IMG/VR virus record: IMGVR_UViG_2547132281_000002
Location: 1 to 25,592 of that record
Direction: 5' to 3' (one strand)
DNA from: a virus
Lineage: Duplodnaviria > Heunggongvirae > Uroviricota > Caudoviricetes
Length of the DNA: 25,592 bases
The position numbers and the translations under genes are program-made. This document shows, piece after piece, positions 89-17,039 of the stretch. The stretch's first letter is position 1, and the number at the start of each line of letters is the position of its first letter. Under the pieces are notes generated by a model that saw only the letters and a program-made list of their open reading frames with translations, did no database searches and was not told the origin of the DNA.

Positions 89-121
89 AAGCCCGCGATA
101 TTTTAAGCGGGCTTTTATTTT
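89..121 (+). terminator. Hairpin plus T-run, rho-independent terminator-like, at the left edge of the window
   Basis: Stem gcccgc (91-96) pairs with gcgggc (106-111) and is followed by ttttatttt. Read directly from the sequence, not folded computationally. Confidence 0.3.
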
Positions 122-701
122 AAACTTCAGGTATTACAGGCCACTCAATATCAGGTGCAGTTGATGTATCAACACGGTTCAGCAACACCCGATACTTTTT
201 CCAGGCTTCCAGCAATGAGGTTTCTTCCTCCGTTGCGATTTCCAGATCTACAGCATCCTGAAGTGGCGCAATATGCTCACTGGCTACCTGCATCAGGCTG
301 TTTTTTGTTTCTTCCGCCTCCCGGATCCGGAACAGTTTTTCTGCTTCTGCATCTTTCACCCAGGCTGTGCCGTTCCACTTCTGAAACTCCCCTTCCGGCG
401 ATAACCAGGTAACATTTTCCGGTAATGAGCCGAGTTCAGAAATAAATAATGCGTCGCCGGAAGCCACGTCATAAACCGTTTTACCCCGATGATCTTCAAC
501 GAGATGCCACGATGACTCATCACTGTTGAAAACAGCCACGAAGCCAGCCGGAATATCTGGCGGTGCAATATAGGTACTGTTTGCTGGCAGACCTGTATGA
601 GGCGGAATATATGCGTCACCTTCACCAATAAATTCATTAGTTCCGGCCAGCAGATTATAAATTTTTATGGTCCGTGGTTGTTCACTCATTCTGAATGCCA
701 T
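120..701 (-). CDS. tfa: Tail fiber assembly protein Tfa (lambda Tfa / DLP12 TfaD-like), 193 aa
   Basis: Translation [24 protein letters not shown]... matches lambda Tfa as I recall it. Its ATG overlaps the stop of the upstream stf fragment (TAATG), as in lambda stf-tfa. Confidence 0.9.
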
Positions 702-1885
702 TATGCAAGCCTCACAATGTAGTTAAATGCGATGTTTTTGACGGTGTTTTCCGCGTTACCAGCAGCGTTAACGGTGATGGTGTGTCCATGTGAGCCAATC
801 GCAACAGAGTGCGTATGAGCACCAATACCGACAGTATGTGCGTGAGCACCTGCAGATGCGGCTGTGCCGCTGACACTATGAGTGTGCGCTCCTGCAGCAC
901 TTGTATTCACACTGGCCGCAGACACTACCTTATGTACTGACCCATTTTGTGACCACTGGCTGACTGCTGATGCGCCTGTGACACTATGAGTATGGTTTCC
1001 GGCACTTGCGGCTGTACCGCTCACACTGTGCGTATGCGCCCCGGTGTTATTCGTGGATTTAGTGCCGTAATCAAACGACGATGTGGTTTTCGTCCCCAAA
1101 TCCGTACTGGATGCGCTGGCGCTGTGGGTGTGCGATTTAATGCCGTCCTGTTCCTGAGACAATACGGCACGACCACTGGCAGGTTTGCCCTTAATCGTCC
1201 AGCCACGCATATCAGGGATCACGCCTGACGGATAAGCGGCTGCAAGTTTCGGGTATGCAGATTTGTCAAAAGTCTGCCCCTGCATCAGGGCATAACCAGA
1301 CGGAACGGTATCTGATGGCCACGGGGTTGGTGCACCGACTGGGTAGCTTTCTGGTGGAAGATTTTTCGAGGTATAAACTTCTGCCCAGTCTTCCTCAAAA
1401 CCATAGCCATCTCTTGAGGAACGGTAGAACAGACCTCCATTTCTGTAATGTGCCTTCATCTGCAAGGTCCGGCAACTTCCGACTCCGGTATAGAAGTTAA
1501 CCAGAATATAGCTGTCGCCAGAGCGGGTGACATTGTAAGCGCCTGATTCGGCATTCCATGGAACGCCCCCATCCGCATCGGCATACGTATCCGTTGCCCT
1601 TCTGGCAAAAGCAGCCACATGCGCGGCGGTTAAAGTAATATCTTTGGAACCATCAAACTCAACACCAGAAACCAGTCTTGGCGTTTGCAGCTTTGTTGCT
1701 GTTAATGCATTACCGTTCAGACTTGCGGACAGTTTGGTTCCAATAACCAGTTCGCCGGTTGCGTTATCAATAGCAAACGGTCTTAATGTATTCCAGCCAC
1801 CATAAACATCACCTTGATTGGTAAGCAGCAGGTAAGTTTTAGCGCCATCATTACGCCATAATGCACCATACTCCCCACCTATCAT
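701..1885 (-). pseudogene. stf: C-terminal fragment of side tail fiber protein Stf (about 394 of roughly 774 codons), fused at a deletion junction
   Basis: Translation ends ...[31 protein letters not shown] with repeated [15 protein letters not shown] motifs, matching the lambda/Rac Stf C-terminus from memory. The N-terminal part is absent and the reading frame begins right at the Nu1 junction. Confidence 0.8.
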
Positions 1886-2328
1886 TCGAATCTGATTTCC
1901 AGTTCCGGAAAACGCCGCTGCACCGACAGGGGGATCCCGTCGAGAATACTGGCAATTTCACCTGCGATCCGCGACAGCACGAAAGTACAGAATGCGGTTT
2001 CCACCACTTCAGCGGAGTCTCTGGCATTTTTCAGCTCCTGTGCGTCGGCCTGCGCACGCGTAAGTCGATGGCGTTCGTACTCAATAGTCCCTGGCTGGAG
2101 ATCTGTCTCGCTGGCCTGCCGCAGTTCTTCAACTTCCCGGCGCAGCTTTTCGTTCTCAATTTCAGCATCCCTTTCGGCATACCATCTTATAACGGCGGCA
2201 GAGTCATAAAGCACCTCATTACCCTTGCCACCGCCTCGCAGAACGGGCATTCCCTGTTCCTGCCAGTTCTGAATGGTACGGATACTCGCACCGAAAATGT
2301 CAGCCAGCTGCTTTTTGTTGACTTCCAT
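1882..2328 (-). pseudogene. nu1: Terminase small subunit Nu1, truncated at about codon 144 (DLP12 nohD-like remnant)
   Basis: MEVNKKQLADIFGASIRTIQNWQEQGMPVLRGGGKGNEVLYDSA... matches lambda Nu1 up to ...RFPELE, then diverges and stops. Lambda Nu1 is 181 aa from memory. Confidence 0.85.
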
Positions 2329-2329
2329 T

Positions 2330-2560
2330 GTTCATCCCACGGCCAAAAACAGAGAAAGGAAACGACAGAGGCCCAAAAGCTCGTTTTCAGCACCTGTCGT
2401 TTCCTTTCTTTTCAGGGGGTATTTTAAATAAAAACATTAAGTTACGACGAAGAAGAACGGAAATACCTTAAACCGGAAAATTTTCATAAATAGCGAAAAC
2501 CCGCGAGGTCGCCGCCCCGTAACCTGTCGGATCGCCGGAAAGGACCCGCAAAATGATAAT
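2330..2560 (-). other. cos: cos region: cosN 12-nt cohesive-end sequence at 2506-2517, with cosB between cosN and Nu1
   Basis: The minus strand reads ...GTTACGGGGCGGCGACCTCGCGGGTTTTCGCTATTTATGAAAATTTTCCGG..., which is the lambda right-end/left-end junction as recalled (GGGCGGCGACCT overhang). Confidence 0.8.
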
Positions 2561-2716: not shown

Positions 2717-2911
2717 ATGTCAACGAAGAACAGAACCCGCAGAACAACAACCCGCAACATCCGCTTTCCTAACCAAATGATTGAACAAATTAACATCGCT
2801 CTTGATCAAAAAGGGTCCGGGAATTTCTCAGCCTGGGTCATTGAAGCCTGCCGTCGGAGGCTAACGTCAGAAAAGATAGCATATACATCAATTAAAAGTG
2901 ATGAAGAATGA
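2717..2911 (+). CDS. ylcI: Small ribbon-helix-helix-like protein, DLP12 YlcI-like (DUF3950), 64 aa
   Basis: MSTKNRTRRTTTRNIRFPNQMIEQINIALDQKG.... Position just past cos corresponds to the lambda right-end small ORF. Confidence 0.7.
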   Translation: MSTKNRTRRTTTRNIRFPNQMIEQINIALDQKGSGNFSAWVIEACRRRLTSEKIAYTSIKSDEE

Positions 2912-3075
2912 ACATCCCGCGTTCTTCCCTCCGAACAGGACGATATTGTAAATTCACTTAATTACGAGGGCATTGCAGTAATTGAGTTGCAGTTTTACCA
3001 CTTTCCTGACAGTGACAGACTGCGTGTTGGCTCTGTCACAGGTTAAGTAGTTTGAATGATTAGCAGTTATGGTGA

Positions 3076-3282
3076 TCAGTCAACCACCAGGGAATAATCC
3101 TTCATATTATTATCGTGCTTCACCAACGCTGCCTCAATTGCCCTGAATGCTTCCAGAGACACCTTATGTTCTATACATGCAATTACAACATCAGGGTAAC
3201 TCATAGAAATGGTGCTATTAAGCATATTTTTTACACGAATCAGATCCACGGAGGGATCATCAGCAGATTGTTCTTTATTCAT
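3076..3282 (-). CDS. ybcW: DLP12 YbcW-like small protein, 68 aa
   Basis: [40 protein letters not shown].... AT-rich, convergent with ylcI. Recalled from the K-12 DLP12 gene set. Confidence 0.6.
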
Positions 3283-3567
3283 TTTGTCGCTCCATGCGCT
3301 TGCTCTTCATCTAGCGGTTAAAATATTACTTCAAATCTTTCTGTATGAAGATTTGAGCACGTTGGCCTTACATACATCTGTCGGTTGTATTTCCCTCCAG
3401 AATGCCAGCAGGACCGCACTTTGTTACACAACCAATACTATTAATTGAAAACATTCCTAATATTTGACATAAATCATCAACAAAACACAAAGAGGTCAGA
3501 CCAGATTGAAACGATAAAAACGATAATGCAAACTACGCGCCCTCGTATCACATGGAAGGTTTTACCA

Positions 3568-3978
3568 ATGGCTCAGGTTGCCATTTTTAAAGAAATATTC
3601 GATCAAGTGCGAAAAGATTTAAACTGTGAATTGTTTTATTCTGAACTAAAACGTCACAATGTCTCACATTATATTTACTATCTAGCCACAGATAATATTC
3701 ACATTGTGTTAGAAAACGATAACACTGTGTTAATAAAAGGACTTAAAAAGGTTGTAAATGTTAAATTCTCAAGAAATACGCATCTTATAGAAACGTCCTT
3801 TGATAGGTTGAAATCAAGAGAAATCACATTTCAGCAATACAGGGAAAATCTTGCTAAAGCAGGAGTTTTCCGATGGGTTACAAATATCCACGAACATAAA
3901 AGATATTACTATACCTTTGATAATTCATTACTATTTACTGAGAGCATTCAGAACACTACACAAATCTTTCCACGCTAA
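3568..3978 (+). CDS. ybcV: DUF1398-family protein, DLP12 YbcV-like, 136 aa from an internal ATG
   Basis: ...[58 protein letters not shown].... The ORF track extends it to 3445; I chose the ATG at 3568 to match the recalled YbcV length. Confidence 0.65.
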
Positions 3979-4268
3979 ATCATAACGTCCGGTTTCTTCC
4001 GTGTCAGCACCGGGGCGTTGGCATAATGCAATACGTGTACGCGCTAAACCCTGTGTGCATCGTTTTTAATTATTCCCGGACACTCCCGCAGAGAAGTTCC
4101 CCGTCAGGGCTGTGGACATAGTTAATCCGGGAATACAATGACGATTCATCGCACCTGACATACATTAATAAATATTAACAATATGAAATTTCAACTCATT
4201 GTTTAGGGTTTGTTTAATTTTCTACACATACGATTCTGCGAACTTCAAAAAGCATCGGGAATAACACC

Positions 4269-4562
4269 ATGAAAAAAATGCTACTCGCTACTGCGCTGGC
4301 CCTGCTTATTACAGGATGTGCTCAACAGACGTTTACTGTTCAAAACAAACAGACAGCAGTAGCACCAAAGGAAACCATCACCCATCATTTCTTCGTTTCT
4401 GGAATTGGGCAGAAGAAAACTGTCGATGCAGCCAAAATTTGTGGCGGCGCAGAAAATGTTGTTAAAACAGAAACCCAGCAAACATTCGTAAATGGATTGC
4501 TCGGTTTTATTACTTTAGGCATTTATACTCCGCTGGAAGCGCGTGTGTATTGCTCAAAATAA
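4269..4562 (+). CDS. bor: Bor lipoprotein (serum-resistance lysogenic-conversion protein), 97 aa
   Basis: MKKMLLATALALLITGCAQQTFTVQNK... with lipobox LITGC, matching lambda Bor from memory. Sits opposite Rz as in lambda. Confidence 0.9.
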   Translation: MKKMLLATALALLITGCAQQTFTVQNKQTAVAPKETITHHFFVSGIGQKKTVDAAKICGGAENVVKTETQQTFVNGLLGFITLGIYTPLEARVYCSK

Positions 4563-4593
4563 TTGCATGAGTTGCCCATCGATATGGTCAGCT

Positions 4594-5055
4594 CTATCTG
4601 CACTGCTCATTAATATACTTCTGGGTTCCTTCCAGTTGTTTTTGCATAGTGATCAGCCTCTCTCTGAGGGTGAAATAATCCCGTTCAGCGGTGTCTGCCA
4701 GTCGGGGGGAGGCTGCATTATCCACGCCGGAGGCCGTGGTGGCTTCACGCACTGACTGACAGACTGCTTTGATGTGCAACCGACGACGACCAGCGGCAAC
4801 ATCATCACGCAGAGCATCATTTTCAGCTTTCGCATCAGCTAACTCCTTCGTGTATTTTGCATCGAGCGCAGCAACATCACGCTGACGCATCTGCATGTCA
4901 GTAATTGCCGCGTTCGCTAGCTTCAGTTCTCTGGCATTTTTGTCGCGCTGGGCTTTGTAGGCGATTGCGTTATCACGGTAATGATTGACCGCCCATGACA
5001 GGCTGACGATGATGCAGATAATCAGAGCGGATATAATCGCGGTTACTCTGCTCAC
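4594..5055 (-). CDS. Rz: Spanin inner-membrane subunit Rz, 153 aa, GTG start
   Basis: (V/M)[67 protein letters not shown]... matches lambda Rz from memory. Confidence 0.9.
4653..4835 (-). CDS. Rz1: Spanin outer-membrane lipoprotein Rz1, embedded in the +1 frame of Rz, 60 aa
   Basis: [60 protein letters not shown] with lipobox VVGC and a proline-rich tail, matching lambda Rz1. Confidence 0.85.
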
Positions 5056-5549
5056 TGTTGCCCCCACAAACAGACTTCACGCTCAATCTCACGACGAGTC
5101 ATCAGGCCTTTCCATTGCTTACCGCCAGCGTATGTCCAGCGACGCAGCTGATCACATGCGCCTTTGATATCGCCCTGGTTTATTTTGCGAAGAAGCGTCG
5201 ATGTTCTAAAATTGCCAGCACCCACATTGTAAACGAATGAGTAAAGAGCGCCGCGCGTTGTTTCCGGTATATCGACTTTGATATACGGGTTAATTTGTCT
5301 GGCGACAGTGGCAAGGTCTTTATTCAAGAGTGCTTTGCATTCTGCTTTGGTATACGTTTTACCGAGCATGATGTCTTTTCCGGTGTGTCCGTGACATACA
5401 GTCCATACACCAACAATATCTTTGTATGGTATGTAGCTGACACCTTCCAGACCATCGTTACCACTTGGGCCAGTGATTAACACTGATGCTATAGCAATTG
5501 CTCCGCCACCAATAGCAGCAGCAACGGCTTTTCGTAATGATGGAGGCAT
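5052..5549 (-). CDS. R: SAR endolysin (phage 21 R-like lysozyme, DLP12 RrrD-like), 165 aa
   Basis: [44 protein letters not shown]... has an N-terminal Gly/Ala-rich signal-anchor-release segment followed by a lysozyme domain. Confidence 0.9.
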
Positions 5550-5764
5550 TATTCACCTCTCGCAGCCTTGCGCTTATCTTCTTTAATCTTGAAATAAAGG
5601 TTTGTCAGGTACGTCAGCAGGCCAAATACCAGGCTACCCAGCACACCTATTGCTGCCCACTGTGAGGGCGTGACTTTATCGAGCAGCTGTAAAAACCAGT
5701 AACCGGCACTACCTGCTGAGGTGCCATAGGCGACACCCGTTGTTAACTTATCCATGGATTTCAT
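5549..5764 (-). CDS. S: Pinholin, phage 21 S-like (DLP12 EssD-like), 71 aa, dual-start MKSMDK motif
   Basis: [71 protein letters not shown]. Stop overlaps the R start (TAATG). Confidence 0.85.
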
Positions 5765-7623: not shown

Positions 7624-8007
7624 TTAATTAGAGTTATTAACAACGATATCCATCTCTAACCGGATATCTAATGCCATTAACATCCCTTCAATTATGCCCT
7701 CAGCCTTCTGTAACCTTTTCCCGATATAACCATCAGAGCAGCAATGCTTACCTGCCAGTGACATGAATGTCATACCGACTACATAATAATCTACTAATAA
7801 ATCGTGCAAATCGCTGTTGTTCTTTTTCAGACGGGCCATGCACCCGCAAATGATCATCGCGTCATCGTCACAACATTGCGGGCGAGATTTTACTTTTGAA
7901 GTAATTAATCCCTTAAAACCGGCGGCAATGGACGACCAGGTCACATCTTCATGATTATTAGCCGCCCACGCTCCCCAACGCTCAAGAACCATCTGAATAT
8001 CACGCAT
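7624..8007 (-). CDS. quuD: Late-gene antiterminator Q (DLP12 QuuD-like), 127 aa
   Basis: [62 protein letters not shown].... Last gene of the nin-Q block. An alternative upstream ATG lies at 8022. Confidence 0.8.
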
Positions 8008-8092
8008 CAACTTACTCCACAAAAATCAGACCAGAACGCCAATTACAAGCAAAAATCAACGAAACAGTATTAGTTGATTGTTATCTCTGACT

Positions 8093-8215
8093 TCATACTC
8101 CTGCTCCTGTCAGGGTTTTGGCGTAATTCTTCAGTATTCGGTAATCGGTCAAAACAGAACCGGGGAAACGATATAAGCGCAGACGCCCCCAGCGGTGGCG
8201 AAGACGTTCTGCCAT
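8093..8215 (-). CDS. ylcG: Small protein YlcG-like, 40 aa, below the ORF-track length cutoff
   Basis: Manual translation gives MAERLRHRWGRLRLYRFPGSVLTDYRILKNYAKTLTGAGV. Sits between rusA and Q as in DLP12. Confidence 0.5.
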   Translation of the reverse strand: MAERLRHRWGRLRLYRFPGSVLTDYRILKNYAKTLTGAGV

Positions 8216-8229
8216 ATAAAACTCAAACA

Positions 8230-8592
8230 TCATTCATTCCCCATTTCGGTGATGGTCAGTTCCAGCCTCCCACCTTTGGTAACAGGCATCTTCACAACGC
8301 GGTAATCAACGACCTGAGCATCATCCAGCCAGAAACCTGCTTTAGTGAGTGCGTCAAAAGCGGCTTTTTGCAGATTATCCAGGTCACGGCGACGGCGATC
8401 CGGCATGTGGCACTCAATGCGGATTTTCACAGGCATAGCCAGGCCGATATCCAGCATTGCGTTTTTAATGATTCGGGCGACGTTATCGCGGTATGCCTGC
8501 CCCTCTGCGCTGACGTGCGTGCGCCCGCGATTATGGCGGTAATAGCGATTATTGCTCGGAGGCCAGGGTAATGTGATGCTGTAGGTATTCAC
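8230..8592 (-). CDS. rusA: Holliday-junction resolvase RusA, 120 aa
   Basis: [43 protein letters not shown]... matches RusA from memory. Confidence 0.9.
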
Positions 8593-8879
8593 GCCTTAAT
8601 AACCCCCTCTTTCAGCCAGATAACCTGTGTTCTCGCCATACCTTCCAGCGCGCATTCTTTTGCATATGCAGCATCGACAAAATGTGTGCGGCGGTCGATT
8701 TCGTCGTGGCAGGCAGAACATGCAATGGTGGCAATCAGGTCTGGCGGTTTGGTACCGGTGCCGCACAATCCAGTCAGCCGGATATGTGCCAGTACAGACG
8801 TTTCAGGGTTGCCATTACATACGCCAGGGATTCTTACCTGGCATTCCCGACTACGCGCTGCTTTTCTCAAATCAGCCAT
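8589..8879 (-). CDS. ybcO: YbcO-like nuclease (DUF1364, Cys-rich), 96 aa
   Basis: [64 protein letters not shown].... Overlaps the rusA start (ATGA). Confidence 0.8.
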
Positions 8880-9042
8880 GATTCCTCCTTGCTGCCAGTC
8901 GCAACCATTTTTTATCAACCAGGCTGGCGGTATATCCGAGCAGTGTTGGTATTTCGGAAGGCTTCAGCTCCGGTTTACGCTTACGACGATCTGGTACTCT
9001 GTAGATGTGTCCGTTCATGACACGAATAAGCGGTGTAGCCAT
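8872..9042 (-). CDS. ninE: NinE-like protein, 56 aa, below the ORF-track length cutoff
   Basis: Manual translation gives [56 protein letters not shown]. Start overlaps the ybcN stop (TAATG); stop overlaps the ybcO start. Confidence 0.6.
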   Translation of the reverse strand: MATPLIRVMNGHIYRVPDRRKRKPELKPSEIPTLLGYTASLVDKKWLRLAARRNHG

Positions 9043-9497
9043 TACGCCTCCTGCTTGTCGCGGAGCAGCTGGAACTCGCAGCTCTGCGGAATAGTCAGGT
9101 GGCAGCCAATATTCACCGCCCAGGCTTCAACCTTACACAGGAAGACATACATCTCTCCGGTATCAAGATCGGAGGTATGGCGTAACGACTGGATAGTGGT
9201 GATATCACCGGTTACGACATCAACCAGGTCTTTGGTTTCATAACCGAGATATGTGTGTTTGAGAGCATCTTTTACCCAAGCTGGAGTAGCGAACGTTTTA
9301 CCCCTGCTGATGAGGTATTCACTGATTTCGCTGTACCACATGTGGCTGAGTGCATTCTGGGAAAGACTGCGTTTCTCACGCCACGGTTTAAGCACCATGC
9401 GAAAGCATTTGCCCTCCTCCAGATAAGGCTGGATCTGCCGACCGATAGCGGTGAAGTTACCGCGATGTAATTTGATGCCATCTTGTGGGAGATTCAC
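9042..9497 (-). CDS. ybcN: NinB-family recombination protein (DLP12 YbcN-like), 151 aa
   Basis: [62 protein letters not shown]... matches YbcN from memory. Confidence 0.85.
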
Positions 9498-9684
9498 GCT
9501 TCACCTCCGCAGAGGTCAAACGCTGGATACAATATATCGCAGGTGCATTTCTGCATCTGTGGAGGGAGAAGAGAGTTTGGATTGTGTGTGCGCATAAACG
9601 TCCCCGTTTAGCGCAGAAGTCACCGGAGTTGTTCAGGCTCCGATGACATGATTATGGCGAGTTGATTATCGCAAATCAAAGGTT

Positions 9685-10041
9685 TTAATTGTGCTTTATT
9701 CCTTCAAGCGTTGCCTTCATACCAACCAAAGAAATGTTTAGCTCTCCAACTTTCTCAGGGCTATATAATTCAGAATGAAGCCAATATTCTGATTTATCTA
9801 AACATCTTTTAGCCAGCTCTCGATCAAAGTCTACGACTTGGGAAGACGCTTCATACCAAAGCCTATAAAGTTTTTCTTCTTCGTTTGGGTTATTAGGCTC
9901 ACCACGTTTTAATTTTTCAGTATATAAAATTGTTGAATAAATCGCAGGAGTTAATCCAGTGATTGCCCTCTGCCGCAGATCGGATTTGTTTGTTATCCAC
10001 CCCAACAGACGATCTCCCATCCATGTGATAATTGTATCCAT
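9685..10041 (-). CDS. Uncharacterised 118-aa protein, AT-rich cargo gene
   Basis: MDTIITWMGDRLLGWITNKSDLRQRAITGLTPAIYSTILYTEK.... An RBS-like AAGAAGGG lies 8 nt upstream. No family recognised; no predicted transmembrane segment. Confidence 0.55.
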   Translation of the reverse strand: MDTIITWMGDRLLGWITNKSDLRQRAITGLTPAIYSTILYTEKLKRGEPNNPNEEEKLYRLWYEASSQVVDFDRELAKRCLDKSEYWLHSELYSPEKVGELNISLVGMKATLEGIKHN

Positions 10042-10502
10042 GCTTTAGCCCTTCTTAGTAAATAGTGTGTAGGGCGACTGAAGGACCGAGTTTATGCTTT
10101 TTCGCATTGCTTTCAGTTAGTACACCGGTATCGCACCGGAAACAATCCTACGGCAAATTGGTTGTCTGACCTCTCGGTTTTTCGTGCATTAACCGATACC
10201 CACTACAGTCTCGGCGAAAGCTGCACACCCCCAGGGTGTACTGGTAGCACTCGGCACAGCCTAGCACGCCACTTTCTTCTCACTATCCAGTCTAATTTTA
10301 TCCCCTAGTCAGACACTCAGATGTAGTGCTCCGCAGCGGCATGCGGGGGAATACAAAAACTCGGACAAAATTGGGCCCTCCTTTTTGAATCACTCGCGGG
10401 GATGTAGTTATTAATACATGGAAAAAGATCTGTTTTCAAATCCAACATTATATGGTTTCAATACCACGGGGTGGCTATGTGTTTCTCATTGTTAATTGGA
10501 AT
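10042..10502 (-). other. ORF-free 460-bp segment between two same-strand genes; candidate long structured 5' leader or ncRNA
   Basis: No ORF of 60 codons or more in this interval in the supplied track, and only short ORFs found by manual reading. GC content is higher than in the flanking AT-rich genes. Several local hairpins (cacccUGGgggtg; ccggtGCGATaccgg; ucgguu...aaccga) and a sigma70-like promoter on the minus strand. Confidence 0.35.
10411..10439 (-). promoter_or_regulatory. Sigma70-like promoter (TTGAAA-N17-TATTAA) on the minus strand inside the ORF-free segment
   Basis: -35 TTGAAA at 10439-10434, 17-nt spacer, -10 TATTAA at 10416-10411. Predicted start near 10404, about 360 nt upstream of the 118-aa ORF. 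Confidence 0.3.
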
Positions 10503-10826
10503 CTACTGTAATCGATCCGAACGTAAATGCGGCAAAACTCGACTCCACTTATCATCCTGCCACGGCCGGAATTTTACATGTGCCGTTTCTCTGGCAAGGA
10601 TTGCCTGTGCCTTATTGAGTATCTGGGGATATTCTTGCTCGATAGAAGTGAAGCGACCAGCTTCACGATGCTCCGCAACCTGAAGAAGAGGAGTAACGTT
10701 CTGGTAGGTAATTAACATCACATTCCCTGCTCGCCATAACCAGGCGAGTGTGCAAAGTTCGTTATCAGTGAATTGTTTTGTGATTGGGTATTGTTGAACT
10801 GCTAGAACGAGAACGCCAGCATCCAT
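10503..10826 (-). CDS. Uncharacterised 107-aa protein
   Basis: MDAGVLVLAVQQYPITKQFTDNELCTLAWLWRAGNVMLITYQNVTPLLQVAEHREAGRFTSIEQEY.... No family recognised and the RBS is weak. Occupies the slot that holds ybcL/ybcM in DLP12. Confidence 0.45.
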   Translation of the reverse strand: MDAGVLVLAVQQYPITKQFTDNELCTLAWLWRAGNVMLITYQNVTPLLQVAEHREAGRFTSIEQEYPQILNKAQAILARETAHVKFRPWQDDKWSRVLPHLRSDRLQ

Positions 10827-10937
10827 TGGCAGTCTCTATAGTAAAACCATAGCTCAGGACGCTTCGTTCAGGATAGATAATTTTATTGTACTTACCTAAC
10901 TTTCTTACTATAGCACGGTTGAAAAAGTGATTATTAC

Positions 10938-12464
10938 TCAAAAATAAACCTCACCATCAACCATATATTTGAGAGTACTTATCGCCTGCTGGGCGGATAT
11001 TGTTTTCATTAAAGGATAGTGTTTAAAAACAATGCCATTCATAAAATAGATATCACAGGTTTTATTATCTGTATTGATTATGATTTTTTCGAATGTTTTA
11101 TAGGCAAGTGTACGACATAGCTCTCGCCCATTTTTACTGTTTAAGTCAATAGCATGAAAATCACCAAGTGAACTCACCGCTTTACTCTTCAAAGTTTTTA
11201 ATGATACAGAAGCCCTTCGTAATTCCTTATCTAATACTCTGATTTTTTCTGCTATAGCGGTAACTTCAGGCGCAACAGATAATGCAGCAATTAAATTATT
11301 AATTTTCATCTGGAGCTCAATAATTTTCAACTCTAAAGTTTCATTAGCATCTTTCTTGTTTTCAACTGGTTGGATTTTACTACAATTAAAAAGCAACTCA
11401 TTAATGATATTATAATCAACCAAATCTCTCTTTATTGATGGCCTGTCACATCGATGCAGTCTTCTCATCGGACAAACATAATAGCCATGCAAACTTCCAG
11501 ATACCGCATGAACAATCATGGTATTACCACAAGCCTCGCACTTCATAACTGTTCGAAGTAGATTTATCAACATAGGATTTTTGCTACTATTGCTAATACC
11601 AAAAGGTGCCAACCGAATTTCCTGTACAGCGTAAAACAAATCATCTGATATGACTCTGGGATAATAGCCAGCGATTTCACTTATTCCTTTACCTCTTGCA
11701 CGATATGAAGGTACGCATATACCTATCAGAGCTTTATTCGCTAATAATTTTTCAATTACAGAAGGTCCCCATGCACTTTCTTTTCCTGAGAAATTCTTTA
11801 CAGCATGATCATTTAAATACTTGGCTATTGCATTCAATGAGCGCCTTTCCATCCTGAGTTTAAAAATTAGCTCAATAGTTTTCACCCTGTCGGGGTCTGG
11901 AACAAAAGCCGTTCTTTTGTCATCTAAGGAGAGCCATCTCGGACAAGACGCCGTCATAATCGTACCTGATTCCAGTGCATCCTGCCGTTTTTTCTTCCAT
12001 GATAATTTAACCCGACTTGACTTTATCTCGCTTTCTTCATTTGCCCTTTGTGCTATAAGTATGGCTTTTATTAATGAATATGGCTCATTCAAAGAGTCAA
12101 TATTATAGACTGTATTGTCGCAAAGAGTTATAACATCAATACCGTGATTCAAAATCAATTTCAGACGTTCAATCGCTTCACCGACTTTTTCTCTTGAAAG
12201 TCTGTCCAGACTTTCAACTAACAATGTAGTTCCTGGCAATATATAACCATGCTCTATAGCATCTAAAAATTCCGAAAAAGCTCCTGATTGTGCATGCTTT
12301 CCTTTGAATGCACTTAATCCTAAATCTTCATATGTTATGGTATCAAGATAATAATCACTATTTACCTTTAACCATTCAGCAATAAGTCTTCTCTGTCGGT
12401 TTAATGAGTCGCCAGACATCTGACCTGGTGATGAAAATCGCATATATGCTATGGCTTTTTTCAT
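10938..12464 (-). CDS. ybcK: Large serine recombinase (DLP12 YbcK-like), 508 aa
   Basis: N-terminal resolvase-like MKKAIAYMRFSSPGQMSGDSLNRQRRLIAEW... with catalytic Ser in the YxRxSS context. Central recombinase region, a Cys-rich zinc-ribbon-like stretch (CEACGN...CPMRRLHRC) and a coiled-coil tail. Strongly AT-rich. Confidence 0.85.
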   Translation of the reverse strand: MKKAIAYMRFSSPGQMSGDSLNRQRRLIAEWLKVNSDYYLDTITYEDLGLSAFKGKHAQSGAFSEFLDAIEHGYILPGTTLLVESLDRLSREKVGEAIERLKLILNHGIDVITLCDNTVYNIDSLNEPYSLIKAILIAQRANEESEIKSSRVKLSWKKKRQDALESGTIMTASCPRWLSLDDKRTAFVPDPDRVKTIELIFKLRMERRSLNAIAKYLNDHAVKNFSGKESAWGPSVIEKLLANKALIGICVPSYRARGKGISEIAGYYPRVISDDLFYAVQEIRLAPFGISNSSKNPMLINLLRTVMKCEACGNTMIVHAVSGSLHGYYVCPMRRLHRCDRPSIKRDLVDYNIINELLFNCSKIQPVENKKDANETLELKIIELQMKINNLIAALSVAPEVTAIAEKIRVLDKELRRASVSLKTLKSKAVSSLGDFHAIDLNSKNGRELCRTLAYKTFEKIIINTDNKTCDIYFMNGIVFKHYPLMKTISAQQAISTLKYMVDGEVYF

Positions 12465-12647
12465 GGTGACACCTGCTAACGTATGCTTTTATAAACCTTA
12501 GTGGTGGGATATAATTTTTGTTTAATTTTTATTTAAAAAGACAATTAAGGTCACATTATCTTGAATATACAACAATAATCGTATTGCAATTTTCTTACGC
12601 CATAATCTTGAAAGCACAAAAGAATACATAAAAAAATAAAGACATTA

Positions 12648-12689
12648 ACAAAAAGCATAAAACGAGGCTCATATAAATATAAGAGCCTC
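12648..12689 (-). terminator. Rho-independent terminator downstream of emrE
   Basis: On the minus strand, stem gaggctc/gagcctc with a 12-nt AT loop followed by GUUUUAUGCUUUU. Confidence 0.5.
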
Positions 12690-12720
12690 CATATTTTAGT
12701 CGTTTAGAAACAAATTATTT

Positions 12721-13053
12721 TTAATGTGGTGTGCTTCGTGACAATAAATTAATAACCAACACACCGGCACAAATCAACATCATGCCTATAATGGCTGGCA
12801 GGTCCAGCCGTTGGCCGAAAAGTCCCCATGACAGTAAGCTAATCAGGACAATACCGACTCCTGACCAGATAGCATAAGCAATCCCTGTAGGAATATAAGC
12901 CAGCGTCTGAGCTAATAACCAGAATGATGCACAATAACAAATAATTGTACCAACAGATGGCCATAACCGTGTAAAACCTTCTGAAAACTTCATTAAGGTT
13001 GTACCAATGACCTCTGCAAGTATTGCACCACCAAGATAAATATAAGGGTTCAT
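12721..13053 (-). CDS. emrE: Small multidrug resistance (SMR) efflux transporter EmrE, 110 aa
   Basis: MNPYIYLGGAILAEVIGTTLMKFSEGFTRLWPSVGTIICYCASFWLLAQTLAYIPTGIAYAIWSGVGIVLISLLSWG... matches EmrE from memory, including the conserved membrane Glu in the first helix. Confidence 0.9.
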   Translation of the reverse strand: MNPYIYLGGAILAEVIGTTLMKFSEGFTRLWPSVGTIICYCASFWLLAQTLAYIPTGIAYAIWSGVGIVLISLLSWGLFGQRLDLPAIIGMMLICAGVLVINLLSRSTPH

Positions 13054-13120
13054 AGAATATTCTTTCCTGTTCAAACTGGAGAGAATTGTACTACAGTTTG
13101 AACTCAACTCACCTGTTTCA

Positions 13121-13423
13121 TCATTGTGTACCCATTGATGTTCTTTTATATACCCTCAATACCCGTTTCATCGCGGCACTCTGGCGACACTCCTTAAAAA
13201 TCAGATTCGTGCTCACCTTTCCTTCCCGTTCTTCTCTGGTAGCAAACCGGTAATACACCGTTCGCCAGACCTTACCTTCGATAGCCAGAAGACCTGCCCG
13301 TGCCATTTTAGCCGCAGCCTGATTTATGCTGGTTACCGTTGCGCCTGTTACCGCGGCAACGTCCTGCGCACAGAATTTCTTATGAGTCCCCAGGTAATGA
13401 ATAATTGCCTCTTTGCCCGTCAT
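13121..13423 (-). CDS. ren: Ren (lambda Rex-exclusion escape protein), 100 aa
   Basis: MTGKEAIIHYLGTHKKFCAQDVAAVTGATVTSINQAAAKMARAGLLAIEGKVWRTVYYRFATREEREGK... matches lambda Ren. Overlaps the P stop (ATGA). Confidence 0.85.
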   Translation of the reverse strand: MTGKEAIIHYLGTHKKFCAQDVAAVTGATVTSINQAAAKMARAGLLAIEGKVWRTVYYRFATREEREGKVSTNLIFKECRQSAAMKRVLRVYKRTSMGTQ

Positions 13424-14121
13424 ACCCTTGCTCCTTTCAGCCCAAACTTAGCTTTGATTTCTGCGATCTTCGCCAGAGCCTGTGCACGATTTAGAGGTCT
13501 ACCGCCCATGACAGGAAGTTGTTTTACTGGTTCAGGTATAGCCTCACCACGGTTAATTCGTGCGGTCATACAGGACAGTTCATCGGCAGCCTTGCGCCGT
13601 AATTCCGCGTCAGTCAACGCATTGGCCCGCATGTTCTGATACAGGTTGGTAACCAGCCAGTAGTGCGCGTTTGATTTCCACGGATAAGACTCTGCATCCG
13701 GATACAGCCCGCGCTTCCGGCAATACTCGTAAACCATATCAACCAGCTCGCTGGCGTTTGGCAGCCCGGCGGTAACAGATGCTTCTTCCCGGCACCAGGC
13801 GACAAACTGCCCGGGTGATGGCAGGAATGGTCGATTCTGCCGACGGGCTACGCGCATTCCAGCGTTAACCTGTTCCATTGTGGTGATCCCGTTTTCCCGA
13901 AAAGCCAGCACCCACTGGCGGCGGATTTCGTTCAGTTCATTCTGGTCACGGTTAGCCAGGCTCGCCGGGAAAGTTGCCAGTAACTGGCTGAACACACCGT
14001 TGATGATCTGCGCTACCTGCTGTACCTGCGGCTTTTCGTCGTACTGTTCCGGCATGTTGTTGGCGATCCGACGCATCTGCTCACGGTCAAAGTTAACCAT
14101 CTGTGCGGCGATGTTTTTCAT
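13420..14121 (-). CDS. P: Replication protein P (DnaB helicase loader), 233 aa
   Basis: MKNIAAQMVNFDREQMRRIANNMPEQYDEKPQVQQVAQIINGVFSQLLATFPASLANRDQNELNEIRRQW... is near-identical to lambda P as recalled. Confidence 0.95.
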   Translation of the reverse strand: MKNIAAQMVNFDREQMRRIANNMPEQYDEKPQVQQVAQIINGVFSQLLATFPASLANRDQNELNEIRRQWVLAFRENGITTMEQVNAGMRVARRQNRPFLPSPGQFVAWCREEASVTAGLPNASELVDMVYEYCRKRGLYPDAESYPWKSNAHYWLVTNLYQNMRANALTDAELRRKAADELSCMTARINRGEAIPEPVKQLPVMGGRPLNRAQALAKIAEIKAKFGLKGARV

Positions 14122-15047
14122 AAATCCACCCCGTAAATCCAGTCAGTGTTTGTCAGGTCGAGTTTTGGTTTGCTGGCTATCATGCCTGCCTGTTGCTTGT
14201 TACGGTTGATTTCGAGTTGGGTCCACTTGTCGCGGAGTTTGGCCGGACTTAGCACGTTACCGGACCAGAAGTTGTCCTGGCATGCCCAGCGGAAAAGCAC
14301 GCACATGTCGCGGTGGTTACGTCCGTCACGTTCACGCATCAGGCGGATATCGTTAGCCCACCCTGCAAAATTCGGTTTTCTGGCTGATGGTGCGATGGTC
14401 TTCACCATGTCAAACATCCACTCTGCGGCGGTCAGGTCTTCTGCTGTCCCCCACTTGCTGCCGCTCTGAATTGCAGCATCTGGTTTCACCACAGGAAGAT
14501 CGTTTTCTGGTTGGTCAGAGGATTCGCCAGAATTCTCGGACGAAAAAGGTTTTATATTGTCTTTTGTTAGTTTGTCTTTTGTGTTTACCTGATTCGGGTA
14601 AACGCCTTTACCTGATTTGGGTAAACTTTTCTTACCTGATTCAGGTAAATTTACCTCTTTCAGGTAAACTTTATTTTTCTTACCTGATTCGGGTAATGTT
14701 GACCATTCACTGACCACATTATTAATACCGATATTCCGCCCGCTCTGAATCAAAATCCCACGCTTTACCAGAACACTTTTTGCAGCAGAACACTTGTGCG
14801 GTAATATCCCGGTCAATCCGGACAGTTGCTCGTTGCTCACCCAATCCAGTTTTTTATTAAAGCCATATGTTTTGCGCATGACAGCCAGGAAGACCAGAAG
14901 CTGGTGCTGTGTTAATCCGGCCAGCATCACAGCTTCCAGCAACTCATTTGCAATGCGCGTATAACCATCATCGAGATCTGCCACGCGCGGCTCCTTTTGT
15001 GCCGCATCCGGCACTGGAAAATTGAATATCTCAGCAGTGTTTGCCAT
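14118..15047 (-). CDS. O: Replication initiator O-like protein (non-lambda specificity), 309 aa from the RBS-preceded ATG
   Basis: MANTAEIFNFPVPDAAQKEPRVADLDDGYTRIANELLEAV... shares the lambda O N-terminal motif VADLDDGY. Repeated LPESGKK peptides are encoded by the iterons. GGGAGG lies 5 nt before the ATG at 15047. Overlaps the P start (ATGA). Confidence 0.8.
   Translation of the reverse strand: MANTAEIFNFPVPDAAQKEPRVADLDDGYTRIANELLEAVMLAGLTQHQLLVFLAVMRKTYGFNKKLDWVSNEQLSGLTGILPHKCSAAKSVLVKRGILIQSGRNIGINNVVSEWSTLPESGKKNKVYLKEVNLPESGKKSLPKSGKGVYPNQVNTKDKLTKDNIKPFSSENSGESSDQPENDLPVVKPDAAIQSGSKWGTAEDLTAAEWMFDMVKTIAPSARKPNFAGWANDIRLMRERDGRNHRDMCVLFRWACQDNFWSGNVLSPAKLRDKWTQLEINRNKQQAGMIASKPKLDLTNTDWIYGVDL
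14584..14698. repeat. ori: Replication origin: five about 19-bp iterons (consensus TTACCTGATTCGGGTAA) inside the O gene, flanked by an AT-rich tract
   Basis: tttacctgattcgggtaaac, tttacctgatttgggtaaac, cttacctgattcaggtaaat, ttacctctttcaggtaaac and cttacctgattcgggtaatg, each an internal inverted repeat. AT-rich tract at 14540-14583. Confidence 0.75.
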
Positions 15048-15133
15048 AATTCCTCCCGCAATGAGTGTGTTACGATTTGCACCTGAAAGTCGGTTCTGTT
15101 CCAGCAGACCGGCTTTCGCCATTTCTGAACCTG

Positions 15134-15673
15134 TCATATCGCCCCCAGCATGGTAGTAACCATCGCCATCAATGGACCAGCCAGATCTGGGTCCACACGA
15201 AACATCGATACAATACCTTCACTAATTTCCTTCAGTTTCTGGTGGCGTGGTGCGTTGAGAATGACAGCCTGTTTTGCCTCACTGAGTTCCTTTTCCATTT
15301 CAGCCAACCTGGCCATGAAGCTATCCTGCTCAACCAGGTAACCGCGATATTCCAGCGGTAGTACCGCCAGAATTGCCGGGGTCAGTTCACGCACGTTATT
15401 TCGGTATTTTTCAGAATCGAATTTGTTATCGAGGAAGCGGAACAGCTTCTGGCGTGCACGGCTGACATCATCAGGGAAATCGATGGTGCCGCCGCCCTGC
15501 TCCCGATACTCATTCACAATGAGTGTGGCAACGACATCCTGATTATCTACAGCCGACCAGGCGCGGACGGCATCACGGATTTTTTCGTGGCCTGGCACCT
15601 GTTTTGTTTGAGAACGATTTATCACCGCAGTCGGGCTAAATCCGCTAGTCTGTTGGTATGGAAGTGGTTGCAT
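15134..15673 (-). CDS. ydaT: YdaT-like protein (Rac-type ydaS/ydaT module) at the cII position, 179 aa
   Basis: ...VNEYREQGGGTIDFPDD...VRELTPAILAVLPLEYRG... resembles Rac YdaT as I recall it (EEYLRQGGGE...IPAILAILPRELR). RBS AAGGAG upstream. Confidence 0.55.
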   Translation of the reverse strand: MQPLPYQQTSGFSPTAVINRSQTKQVPGHEKIRDAVRAWSAVDNQDVVATLIVNEYREQGGGTIDFPDDVSRARQKLFRFLDNKFDSEKYRNNVRELTPAILAVLPLEYRGYLVEQDSFMARLAEMEKELSEAKQAVILNAPRHQKLKEISEGIVSMFRVDPDLAGPLMAMVTTMLGAI

Positions 15674-15721
15674 AATTGACTCCTTTAGTTTGAATTGACT
15701 GTTAAGTTGATTGCTTATTGT

Positions 15722-15730
15722 TAAAGAGCG
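15722..15730 (-). promoter_or_regulatory. boxA-like element (CGCTCTTTA) about 15 nt downstream of the cro-like stop, the nutR position
   Basis: The minus strand reads ...CACGCTCTTTAACAATAAG..., an exact match to the boxA consensus CGCTCTTTA. No boxB-like hairpin follows. Confidence 0.35.
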
Positions 15731-15742
15731 TGAAATGGAAAT

Positions 15743-15973
15743 TTAAGCTGCGTTCTTTTCGGTGTGTGGAAACAACTTCGGAAGATCCGGGCGAATCTGG
15801 TATGCCTTCACTACTCCACCAGTAGCCGTAACAATGCTGCCGACATGTTCAGGGGATACCTTTGCTTTGTTGTGAAGCCACTTATAGACGGCCTGCTGTG
15901 AAACTTCGCAAGCAGCGCCCAGTTTCTTTTGTGAACCAACGATATTGATCGCTGTTTTGATAGCTGGGTTCAT
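15743..15973 (-). CDS. cro: Cro-like HTH regulator (YdaS/Cro family), 76 aa
   Basis: MNPAIKTAINIVGSQKKLGAACEVSQQAVYKWLHNKAKVSPEHV... has a helix-turn-helix and is divergent from the repressor. GGAGG lies 7 nt before the ATG. Confidence 0.7.
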   Translation of the reverse strand: MNPAIKTAINIVGSQKKLGAACEVSQQAVYKWLHNKAKVSPEHVGSIVTATGGVVKAYQIRPDLPKLFPHTEKNAA

Positions 15974-16077
15974 AACAACCTCCGTGGTTAATTTGAATCA
16001 AGATTAAAACTATGGTTGTTTTTAGTCAACAACCATTTTCGTTTGATGGAATAAAACCTTGGTTGTACATTTGGACT
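15974..16077. promoter_or_regulatory. Divergent operator/promoter region (oR, pR, pRM analogue) between cro-like and cI
   Basis: A 104-bp interval with repeated ACAACC/GGTTGT half-sites, for example ATGGTTGT-N9-ACAACCAT at 16011-16035 and AACCTTGGTTGT at 16057-16068. Confidence 0.55.
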
Positions 16078-16767: not shown

Positions 16768-16888
16768 TACCAATTAAAAATTATCAACTGGGCATTGTGC
16801 TCATTCAGTAAAGAACTAATTCCTATCTTTGCTCTAGGTAGTAATATTAAGCCACCGCAATAATATCTTTACCTAACGGCGTAAGAAT

Positions 16889-16915
16889 CCCGGTCACCGT
16901 GCCGGGTTTTCTTTT
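16889..16915 (+). terminator. Rho-independent terminator after cI
   Basis: Stem cccgg ... ccggg followed by ttttcttttg. Confidence 0.5.
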
Positions 16916-17039
16916 GCCCTCCCCTCATCACACACACCGTTAAAAAAACCACCATAACCTCGCTTCAGTTATCGCTATGCGATTCAAGTCACAAAATAAA
17001 TCCATCCTAAATACAACCAGTTATATCTAAAACAACCAA

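Follow-up and report, generated by a model that had tools for sequence, protein, structure and literature searches.

Why a prophage that has lost its virion genes should still carry a cos site, the start of its small terminase gene and the end of its side tail fibre gene is the question raised by this locus, which could be either a packageable element or the scar of a deletion. The window (the whole 25,592-nucleotide stretch analysed) lies on contig AELE01000001.1 of enterotoxigenic E. coli (ETEC) strain TW14425, a clinical isolate, and contains a lambdoid prophage in reverse orientation at att-lambda. The gene order, int-xis-Red-repressor/cro-O/P-nin-Q-lysis-cos-Nu1, is collinear with lambda and PhiR26_1, and the lambda-type Int/Xis adjoin the att core on the ybhC side of attB. 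Lambda homology stops at lambda nt 27724 on the attL side, and a core search of the window and the source contig found no att core for attR. The window begins 119 bp past tfa and the contig extends 3,011 bp past the window, stopping inside ybcY; the element length, or cos-to-cos distance after excision, is at least 27.3 kb. The features at the two ends of the window are as follows.

120..701, minus strand: tfa, tail fibre assembly gene, 193 aa, intact (homology and Pfam)
701..1885, minus strand: stf', C-terminal 394 aa of the side tail fibre from an internal Met
1882..2328, minus strand: Nu1', lambda TerS residues 1-144 followed by IRFE and a stop, 148 aa (translation and alignment)
1896..1897: deletion junction, AA (minus strand) common to the Nu1 and stf parents (three-way comparison)
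24248..24262, minus strand: attL core GCTTTTTTATACTAA (core search)
24309-25592: chromosomal ybhC, beyond attL, annotated at the same position in relatives

On the cos side of the junction, window 1896-2517 corresponds to lambda nt 623-1 (97.3% identity) and window 2518-5054 to lambda 48502-45967 (98.2% identity), while the 3' part of stf and tfa of phage 2H10 match window 139-1901 (98.1% identity). The breakpoint was placed by comparing the window with both 2H10 Nu1 and 2H10 stf. The parental Nu1 sequence reads ...GGAACTGGAAA up to the breakpoint and ACCG beyond it, the parental stf sequence reads ...GTGGTAA and then TCAGATTCG, and the window reads ...GGAACTGGAAATCAGATTCG across the junction. 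Bases from 1898 upwards are unambiguously Nu1 and bases from 1895 downwards unambiguously stf, and the same picture was obtained with GPT24-02 and B4103-1 as references. A sequence-only reading of this DNA had placed the junction at about 1885-1895 and had left its exact position and any microhomology to alignment; the join is real and is now mapped exactly, but the 2 bp in common lie 1-10 bp from that estimate. These 2 bp sit inside an imperfect TGGxAA, and by our own calculation an overlap of at least 2 bp is expected in approximately 16% of random joins. Microhomology-mediated deletion was rejected as a specific mechanism because the overlap is within chance.

The last ~399 stf codons are joined straight onto Nu1 codon 144, and Nu1 is kept through that codon (lambda nt 620-622), in agreement with the earlier estimate of the break. 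The description of the two genes as fused does not extend to an in-frame Nu1-Stf protein, which was rejected because the frames across the junction differ by one base; Nu1' ends after the four foreign codons (IRFE), and its stop overlaps the internal ATG of stf' (ATGA). The junction was found in 0 of 5,426 complete E. coli genomes, and the exact junction 30-mer had no match in the metagenome_contigs collection or in the genome_contigs collection, the latter holding one genome per species so that its negative says little. An exact look-up of the Nu1' protein returned the source contig only. With this single-contig occurrence the junction is known from one draft assembly only, and its strain specificity suggests that it is recent. 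A laboratory construct (recombineering or packaging strain) was rejected, since the host is a clinical ETEC isolate and the flanks are those of natural prophages.

The lost DNA amounts to 21,155 bp in 2H10 coordinates, or approximately 21,184 bp in GPT24-02 coordinates. Lambda A, W, B, C, D, E, FI, FII, Z, U, V, G, H, M, L, K, I, J and lom gave no tblastn match in the window, which bears out the claim that terminase A through most of stf is gone and that no particles can be made. With the particle-essential genes lost, Nu1 truncated at codon 144 and Stf truncated, this is a defective prophage. The stf' gene lacks ~718 N-terminal codons; 2H10 stf (1117 aa) matches it at 98.1% identity from codon 719 on and the full-length GPT24-02 stf at 99.84%, and its product contains Gp34_trimer and Collar Pfam domains. 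Over residues 1-191, Tfa shares 93.7% identity with its lambda counterpart, and it contains Caudo_TAP_N and Caudo_TAP. An Rfam scan gave a single match, to IS009 within tfa, with no bearing on the junction. The complete prophage of GPT24-02 is parent-like, with 99.84% identity over window 1-1901 and 100% identity over window 1896-5668, and this near-identity on both sides means that a single ~21.2 kb deletion explains the window.

The cos site beside Nu1' is composed of the following elements.

2541..2547, minus strand: cosQ (GGGTCCT), exact 7/7, equivalent to lambda 48473-48479
2468..2522, minus strand: cosN and I2, identical to lambda nt 48487 through bp 52
2353..2469, minus strand: cosB, with R1 at 2353-2368, R2 at 2394-2409, I1 between R2 and R3, and R3 at 2454-2469

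The 12-nt cohesive end is at 2506-2517, and I2, which is required (PMC4856287), corresponds to lambda bp 18-50 (window 2468-2500). R1 and R2 are exact lambda 16-mers. R3 carries a CG to TA change at lambda bp 53-54 (window 2465-2464), outside the bp 55-63 contact zone, and its bp 56, 58 and 59 are intact. Scattered positions between the sites also differ from lambda, and the cosN-R3 spacing is unchanged. In GPT24-02, an identical cos with the TA variant of R3 adjoins a complete Nu1-A-W-B-C-D-E. All of the sequence features of a lambda-specificity cos (cosQ, cosN, I2, R3-I1-R2-R1 and lambda spacing; PMC4669245, PMC9026076, PMC4856287) are present, and the survival of cosN and cosB is confirmed, with cosQ, cosN, I2, R2 and R1 as in lambda. 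Mutations in cos that abolish terminase binding had been named as evidence against helper packaging, and none is found at the positions known to matter. The cos of this element should be recognisable by any terminase of lambda specificity.

The Nu1-derived part of Nu1' spans 2328 down to 1896, carries the Phage_Nu1 Pfam domain and is 97% identical to the lambda fragment, with the substitutions K48R, A75T and L132I. The recognition helix (17-24) and wing (31-39) are those of lambda; the winged-helix domain is intact, as had been read from the sequence alone for the DNA-binding part, and the oligomerisation region is kept. The C-terminal 37 Nu1 residues are lost, the TerL-binding part among them (domain boundaries from PMC9026076). 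Nu1' cannot form a terminase, and this 148-aa "terminase small subunit/noh" ORF is, judged from its sequence, a non-functional remnant. Being a Nu1 homologue beside cos that has lost terminase A and the morphogenesis genes downstream of it, the ORF is of the noh type, and relatives carry the RefSeq annotation nohA or nohD. A promoter/terminator scan of window 1-3200 found 5 promoter-like sites against 4.4 expected by chance; with a site number no higher than chance, a separate Nu1' promoter is unsupported.

The remainder of the prophage is largely intact.

2717..5764: late genes beside cos, full length, 96.7-100% identical to PhiR26_1 proteins
2717-2911, plus strand: ylcI/orf64
3076-3282, minus strand: ybcW
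3445-3978, plus strand: ybcV
4269-4562, plus strand: bor
4594-5058, minus strand: Rz
5052-5549, minus strand: R
5549-5764, minus strand: holin
7624..24174: early region and regulators, full-length tblastn matches
22908-23126: xis, 98.6% identical to lambda
23104-24174: int, 99.4% identical to lambda

The early region comprises Q/quuD, the nin region, ybcK-emrE, ren, P, O, a ydaT-like cII, cro, cI, kil, gam, bet, exo, xis and int, and it is 99.9% identical over 7624..24174 to the complete att-lambda prophage of E7476. The genes int, xis, exo, bet, gam, cI, cro, O, P, Q, holin, R and Rz are all full length by tblastn, so the statement that replication, Red, integration and lysis functions survive holds, and they share 96-100% identity with their counterparts in PhiR26_1, a phage that forms plaques, or in lambda. 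The R lysozyme is identical to K-12 RrrD and is ubiquitous. An SOS-type repressor is retained at the sequence level. An induced element could therefore replicate and lyse its host without producing particles.

Very probably the locus records the decay of a lambdoid prophage, now defective, through a ~21.2 kb illegitimate deletion that joined Nu1 codon 144 to the 3' third of stf. An essentially homology-free event would have taken terminase A and all head and tail genes; cos, Nu1', the Stf fragment and tfa would have survived because the deletion did not reach them, and not through any need for them. Three observations weigh against decay. The unusually complete early and lysis set, together with a good cos, is the minimum for a helper-dependent element. 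The recurrent retention of cos-Nu1' and stf'-tfa in related prophages could reflect selection, in a small sample whose retrieval was partly biased. Finally, both the 1896-1897 junction and a second join, described next, come from one draft assembly.

This second join bears on whether the scar and the early genes belong to the same prophage.

5389..5668: switch from the DLP12-locus lineage (left) to the att-lambda lineage (right), mapped by mismatch positions against E7476, AH62 and E24377A versus GPT24-02 and B4103-1

On the left side, GPT24-02 matches without a mismatch (1896-5668) and B4103-1 with 5 in 1,901, and both of these prophages occupy the argU/ompT locus; on the right side, comparison with the E7476 att-lambda prophage gives 14 mismatches in 17.5 kb. 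The single element assumed by the sequence-only reading does sit at att-lambda, but it consists of two prophage lineages (window 1 to ~5388 versus the rest), so that it must be the product either of recent recombination or of a mis-joined contig. An assembly error would place the cos scar in a DLP12-locus prophage and int, Red and replication in a separate att-lambda prophage. The sharpness of the switch, the end of the contig 3 kb beyond the window inside ybcY and the finding of the hybrid in no complete genome all fit such an error. We nevertheless consider it unlikely: the lineage-identical stretch is merely ~190-280 bp, which reads should bridge and where a contig break is likelier than a mis-join, the unbroken contig suggests that the 5.4-kb arm is single copy in the genome, and exchange between resident lambdoid prophages is common. 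The cos-proximal 5.4 kb was probably acquired through recent inter-prophage recombination within the lysozyme/holin genes, and the element would then illustrate arm exchange among resident prophages.

A second alternative is that the element is a helper-dependent hitchhiker, which upon superinfection or SOS induction excises, replicates, is cut at cos and is packaged by a helper of lambda specificity, spreading itself and its morons from strain to strain. The intact cos positions and early genes fit this, and helpers are common, as lambda-type Nu1 and A (at least 80% coverage) occur in 3,373 of the 5,426 complete E. coli genomes (~62%). Lambda helpers package small cos replicons as multimers (PMC4856287), and defective lambdoid prophages of O157 Sakai are packaged and in some cases transferred (PMC2669165). 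The length of the element, however, argues against it: at 27.3 kb or more, the monomer is ~56% and the dimer ~113% of lambda. Lambda heads accept approximately 75-105% of lambda length, and both forms fall outside this range. In addition, attR was not seen in the window or contig, and the cos-side arm is of DLP12 type, which in relatives ends at ompT and not at a lambda attR. A mature lambda chromosome requires a second, downstream cos (PMC4669245, from a helper/passive tandem-prophage design), so the single chromosomal cos would yield none. Packaging exits cos on the cosB/Nu1 side, so the DNA drawn in from the chromosome in situ would be stf', tfa and the arm with the stress genes, and packaging would head away from replication, Red and int. 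Satellite adaptations are also missing, with no Rpp, capsid-size redirection or helper-sensing derepression, and the junction is in one strain only. For productive transfer the element would have to excise, a helper would have to reside in the same cell or superinfect it, concatemers would have to form by rolling-circle replication, and an off-range cos-to-cos length would have to be tolerated; given these four requirements the element would be at best a poor passive passenger and not an adapted satellite, and we regard the hitchhiker explanation as very unlikely.

It is highly improbable that cos-Nu1'-stf'-tfa is kept as a useful, satellite-like end state under selection, whether because a helper moves the element or its stress arm by unidirectional packaging in situ or because Nu1' acts as a decoy. 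Were it true, the recurrent noh-stf'-tfa scars would mark a selected end state rather than neutral decay. Some deletions within the same prophage family (L019 and L022), which came up in a look-up with the R lysozyme, remove cos too, which disfavours selection for its retention. That Nu1' itself works as a TerS decoy, binding cosB or heterodimerising with an incoming TerS and so interfering with or redirecting packaging as a PICI Rpp does, is barely plausible: its 148 aa, its winged helix and oligomerisation region without a TerL-binding tail and its place beside cos do mirror the cos-rpp layout (Rpp proteins are 139-154 aa; PMC9026076), but it is a 97% identical Nu1 fragment from a random out-of-frame join in one strain, its DNA specificity is the same as that of the helper so packaging cannot be redirected, and it lies within the late operon with a promoter scan at chance level. 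The locus would be of greater import if lambda-type helpers mobilised gutted cos+ prophages at useful frequency, or if Nu1' hindered phages.

Decay, the preferred reading, is supported by independent scars in related prophages, whose differing endpoints are given in 2H10 coordinates.

K-12 DLP12: left in A, nt 1762; right in tfa, 23863
K-12 Qin: left in Nu1, 1463; right in stfQ
YPE10 Qin: left 1392; right 22046
Z142-3: left 1440, Nu1 3' end; right 21896; FII fragment between
B4103-1: left 1452; right 21716; inverted tail-gene fragments between
E24377A: left in A, ~codon 519; right in stf'
AH62: left at the end of E (7989); right at the stf 5' end (20492)

The left endpoints 1367, 1392, 1440, 1452 and 1463 resemble a hotspot at the Nu1 3' end, although several come from a query that favours nearby endpoints. 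Deletions of the morphogenesis block thus recur as separate events among prophages of the att-lambda, DLP12 and Qin families.

Among known systems, the cos-type PICIs resemble the element in being chromosomal, in having no virion genes and in carrying a lambda-like cosQ/cosN with a small winged-helix protein beside cos (PMC6092414, PMC9026076). PICIs have their own cosB, an Rpp that retargets the helper TerS and helper-triggered derepression, and they are small and have no lysis cassette (PMC6092414, PMC9026076). The present element differs from them in its phage-type cosB, the plain Nu1 fragment at cos, the cI/cro switch and the full holin-lysozyme-Rz cassette, and it is not a phage satellite of this kind. 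The lambdoid prophages of O157 Sakai with head or packaging defects can still excise and replicate, and co-resident prophages supply functions by which some of them are packaged and transferred (PMC2669165). That defective lambdoid prophages can be complemented and passed on is thus already documented (PMC2669165); in that pool such behaviour was shown by experiment for specific Sakai prophages, whereas the present element is known from sequence and its deletion is more complete.

E24377A (ETEC), AH62, Z142-3 and E7476 carry prophages of the same att-lambda family at the ybhC/ybhB site, with early regions 97.7-99.9% identical. In E24377A the head and tail genes are likewise absent, cos is kept and the remaining packaging genes are joined to stf'-tfa. 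The breakpoints of these relatives differ from that of the present element, E7476 is complete, and they end with a diguanylate-cyclase gene and attR, in place of which the window carries a Mn-catalase cluster on an arm of DLP12 type.

The nohD/tfaD arrangement of K-12 DLP12 had been proposed as the parallel. The left arm of the present element (lysis-bor-ybcV-ybcW-ylcI-cos-Nu1) is indeed homologous to DLP12, with window 1896-7377 being 96.1% identical, and DLP12 has also lost the morphogenesis block and retained cos. DLP12, however, keeps a full-length nohD and has no stf (nohD-aaaD'-tfaD'), and it lies at argU with intD where the present element has lambda int at att-lambda. K-12 Qin (nohA-stfQ-tfaQ) is structurally closer, as it has cos, a Nu1 homologue with an altered C-terminus that is joined directly to the C-terminal part of stf, and then tfa, and shares the same Nu1 N-terminal domain, K48R included. 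NohA consists of Nu1 1-176 followed by 13 foreign residues, StfQ has 320 aa, and with these different endpoints the Qin event was independent of the one described here. Qin is also at another chromosomal site and has lost int, replication and most early genes, which are kept here. Ordinary prophage decay of this kind is long known from E. coli K-12 and equivalents are common (Qin, DLP12, E24377A); the precisely mapped, strain-specific breakpoint of TW14425 is a further example of lambdoid decay.

The stretch derives from contig AELE01000001.1 of assembly GCA_000166615.2, from the ETEC strain TW14425, which was isolated in Guinea-Bissau in 1996 (PMC4309559). Comparison with lambda (J02459) identifies it as a lambdoid prophage in reverse orientation, with the following lambda matches:

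137-850: end of stf and tfa
1896-2517: lambda 623-1
2518-5054: lambda 48502-45967
13148-14584: ren, P and the end of O
17563-20661: gam-bet-exo region
22654-24262: xis-int, stopping exactly at the att core

The att core, GCTTTTTTATACTAA, is located at 24248-24262 and adjoins chromosomal ybhC, which makes this the attL end of an att-lambda prophage. No attR was seen in the window or in the contig leftward to its end, which gives an element of at least 27,273 bp (24,262 + 3,011). To the left of the window, adjoining tfa, the contig (L009, 12329-15339) encodes a Mn catalase, two DUF892 ferritin-like proteins and a KGG general stress protein, and it terminates beyond this cluster within the ybcY methyltransferase gene. 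Many E. coli genomes, O157 strains among them, share this stress-gene arm at 99.4-99.9% identity.

The defining feature of the prophage is the join between the genes for the terminase small subunit (Nu1) and the side tail fibre (stf):

1882-2328, minus strand: Nu1', truncated terminase small-subunit ORF
701-1885, minus strand: stf', 394-aa C-terminal fragment opening at an internal stf Met codon
120-701: intact tfa

The flanks are mutually unrelated, each aligning with its own parent for hundreds to thousands of bases. From 1896 upward, the Nu1 side exhibits 97.3% identity to lambda and, across 1896-5668, 100% to the E. coli isolate GPT24-02; across 1896-4000 its identity to PhiR26_1, a plaque-forming phage, is 99.3%. 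The stf side (1901 downward) exhibits 98.1% identity to phage 2H10 and 99.84% to GPT24-02. The sequence-only reading had placed a junction here and suggested alignment to define the breakpoint and any microhomology. A three-way comparison (Nu1 ...CTGGAAA/ACCG; stf ...GTGGTAA/TCAG; window ...CTGGAAATCAG) now fixes it to the base, the parents overlapping by only two A residues (1896-1897) within an imperfect TGGxAA. By our calculation about 16% of random joins would share at least two bases by chance, thus this is an ordinary illegitimate join. Translation bears out the Nu1 endpoint of that reading, since Nu1 is retained through codon 144 and followed by IRFE and a stop at 1882-1884. A Nu1-Stf fusion protein is ruled out because the two frames are one base apart. 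The Nu1' stop instead overlaps the internal stf Met codon as ATGA (1882-1885), an arrangement that could allow coupled translation of the Stf fragment, given late-operon transcription. A full-length IS009 match (Rfam, 229.5 bits) is present at 160-358 on the minus strand, inside the 3' part of tfa.

Measured on 2H10, the missing segment is 21,155 bp long; on GPT24-02 it is about 21,184 bp. As proposed, the morphogenesis genes are lost, and lambda A, W, B, C, D, E, FI, FII, Z, U, V, G, H, M, L, K, I, J and lom have no match in the window. In the E. coli genome B4103-1 the Nu1, tail-fragment and stf region is already scrambled, with 1,547 extra bases relative to the window exactly at the junction. 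The join could therefore have arisen in one step, by deletion of 21 kb from a parent like GPT24-02, or by a later loss of 1.5 kb from a remnant like that of B4103-1, and the end state is identical. The DLP12 locus of B4103-1 (L008, 11689-12363) carries inverted fragments of Z, U and V between Nu1 and stf, a more complex rearrangement.

By its gene content the prophage cannot make particles, cos nevertheless being kept. The site was aligned to lambda across the circular junction of the latter (bp, lambda coordinates):

2541-2547: cosQ, GGGTCCT, exact match
2506-2517: 12-nt cohesive end, identical to lambda
bp 18-50: I2, identical to lambda
2454-2469: R3, CG>TA at bp 53-54
2394-2409: R2, exact lambda 16-mer
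2353-2368: R1, exact lambda 16-mer

The window is identical to lambda from 48487 through bp 52, which includes both nick sites, the cohesive end and I2, an essential element whose critical part is bp 30-35 (PMC4856287). R3 spans bp 50-65, with the contacts of the small terminase subunit (TerS) at bp 55-63 and the known packaging-impairing mutations at bp 56, 58 and 59 (PMC9026076, PMC4669245); the contact zone and these three positions are unaltered in the window. Four dinucleotides occur at bp 53-54 of lambda-type cos sites: CG (lambda, PhiR26_1 and E. coli E7476), TG (2H10 and K-12 DLP12), CA (E. coli AH62 and K-12 Qin) and TA (the window, B4103-1 and GPT24-02). These bases (window 2464-2465, cos bp 54-53) are the first two of the conserved R3 core CGTTTCC, and variants are found in phages and complete prophages. 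In GPT24-02 the same cos adjoins full-length Nu1, A, W, B, C, D, E, FI, FII, Z, U and V. The other departures from lambda in the region (bp 73, 102, 134, 138, 145 and 176) also occur in viable phages. Since the critical positions are unchanged and the variant lies beside complete packaging genes, the disabling cosN/cosB mutations that the sequence-only reading named as evidence against itself are absent at sequence level, cosN, I2, R1 and R2 being those of lambda. The site should be recognisable by a terminase of lambda specificity.

The Nu1' product corresponds to lambda gpNu1 residues 1-144 with K48R, A75T and L132I. It matches lambda exactly in both the recognition helix (17-24) and the wing (31-39), and lacks the 37 C-terminal residues, among them the TerL-binding part. 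It is presumably nearly equal to the biochemically studied gpNu1-deltaP141 truncation. Judged from these features, Nu1' could bind cosB and self-associate and would be unable to build a terminase. In TerS the C-terminal 40 residues constitute a protease-sensitive tail, and removal of the last 30 leaves poor TerL binding (PMC9026076).

Survival of the replication, Red, integration and lysis genes was borne out at the ORF level by tblastn with PhiR26_1 and lambda proteins. All of those listed are full length: int (99.4% identity), xis (98.6%), exo (97.8%), bet (99.6%), gam (98.0%), kil (98.4%), S24-type cI (100%), cro (98.7%), ydaT-like cII (96.1%), O (97.1%), P (98.7%), Q (100%), holin (100%), R (98.8%) and Rz (96.7%). 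Between the repressor gene and kil (16767-17190) nothing homologous to the lambda N antiterminator was detected, and PhiR26_1 has none annotated either. The late region carries two cargo genes, an OmpC/NmpC-like porin (360 aa, 6353-7435) between Q and holin, and bor (97 aa, 4269-4562) after Rz. Between ren and the nin region (10938-13107) are ybcK (508 aa, serine recombinase family), ylcJ and emrE (multidrug efflux), which K-12 DLP12 likewise carries in this gap, whereas the viable relative PhiR26_1 encodes the PD-lambda-1 defence gene at the same place; the gap thus looks like a variable cargo slot.

Mismatch counts per 250-bp bin, together with exact mismatch positions, separate two lineages within the window. 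Positions 1 to about 5388 represent a lineage that other strains carry at the argU/ompT (DLP12) locus, with 0 mismatches to GPT24-02 across 1896-5668 and 5 in 1,901 to B4103-1. Positions 5669-25592 belong to the att-lambda lineage, with 14 mismatches to E7476 in 17.5 kb (99.9% identity) and 99.73% identity to AH62. The switch is sharp and lies in the lysozyme and holin genes, somewhere between 5389 and 5668. In GPT24-02 and B4103-1 the stress-cluster arm continues to ompT and envY; all sequenced att-lambda relatives, unlike the left arm of the window, end in a diguanylate-cyclase gene, attR and ybhB. A real, very recent recombinant of two prophage types in TW14425 is favoured, because the stretch common to the two lineages spans no more than about 190-280 bp and the contig is unbroken at the switch; on the same grounds it is unlikely that the draft contig passes artefactually between two resident prophages. 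Loss and retention of genes stand as first read; treatment of the window as one proven element does not. This mosaic structure leaves attR unseen, excision uncertain and the element length a minimum.

The further proposal, mobilisation by a helper phage, overreaches. The points that follow on cos number, packaging direction and length are inferences. The integrated prophage has a single cos. Lambda terminase starts at cosN/cosB and needs a second downstream cosQ/cosN to finish, hence the use of tandem prophages in helper/passive-prophage experiments (PMC4669245). Because the end on which terminase remains, and from which it packages, is the one bearing cosB (PMC4669245), packaging in situ would take up Nu1', stf', tfa and the stress-gene arm, and would miss the replication, Red and integration genes on the opposite side of cos. 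After excision and replication, the cos-to-cos spacing would equal the element length of at least 27.3 kb; from this minimum, one unit is approximately 56% of lambda length and two are approximately 113%. Lambda heads have a usable range of roughly 75-105%, and the element would fall between usable multiples. Small cos replicons are packaged as head-filling multimers (PMC4856287). In O157 Sakai, defective lambdoid prophages are complemented by co-resident ones and packaged, and some are transferred (PMC2669165), so low-level mobilisation is plausible and would be nothing new. Of satellite hallmarks, no Rpp-type protein, cosB of its own or capsid-size functions were found in the element, which differs from satellites in keeping a full lysis cassette.

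Lambda-type Nu1-A DNA is present in 4,127 of 5,426 complete E. coli genomes and largely complete in 3,373; truncated forms are common, with many different end points. Breakpoints of relatives, on 2H10 coordinates, are as follows:

K-12 DLP12: Nu1 and A kept to nt 1762, joined to tfa at 23863
K-12 Qin: Nu1 kept to 1463, joined to stfQ
YPE10 Qin: 1392 joined to 22046
Z142-3: 1440 joined to an FII fragment, then 21896
B4103-1: 1452 joined to inverted tail fragments, then 21716
AH62: end of E joined to the stf 5' end
E24377A (ETEC reference genome): A at about codon 519 joined to stf'

The E7476 prophage is complete. Two further E. coli contigs that share the lysis-bor region of the window have lost both cos and Nu1, with truncated ylcI joined to a tail fibre gene in one (L019, 12639-14831) and bor joined to tfa in the other (L022, 10988-12509), so cos retention is no rule. 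The particular junction of the window had no second occurrence in the 5,426 complete genomes, genome_contigs, metagenome_contigs or an exact-protein look-up. Scars of such gutted prophages are very ordinary. The parallel drawn with K-12 DLP12 is valid, the left arm being truly homologous to it (96.1%), and nohA-stfQ-tfaQ of K-12 Qin is the closest structural match; the window is a new, strain-specific instance of this well-known kind of prophage remnant.
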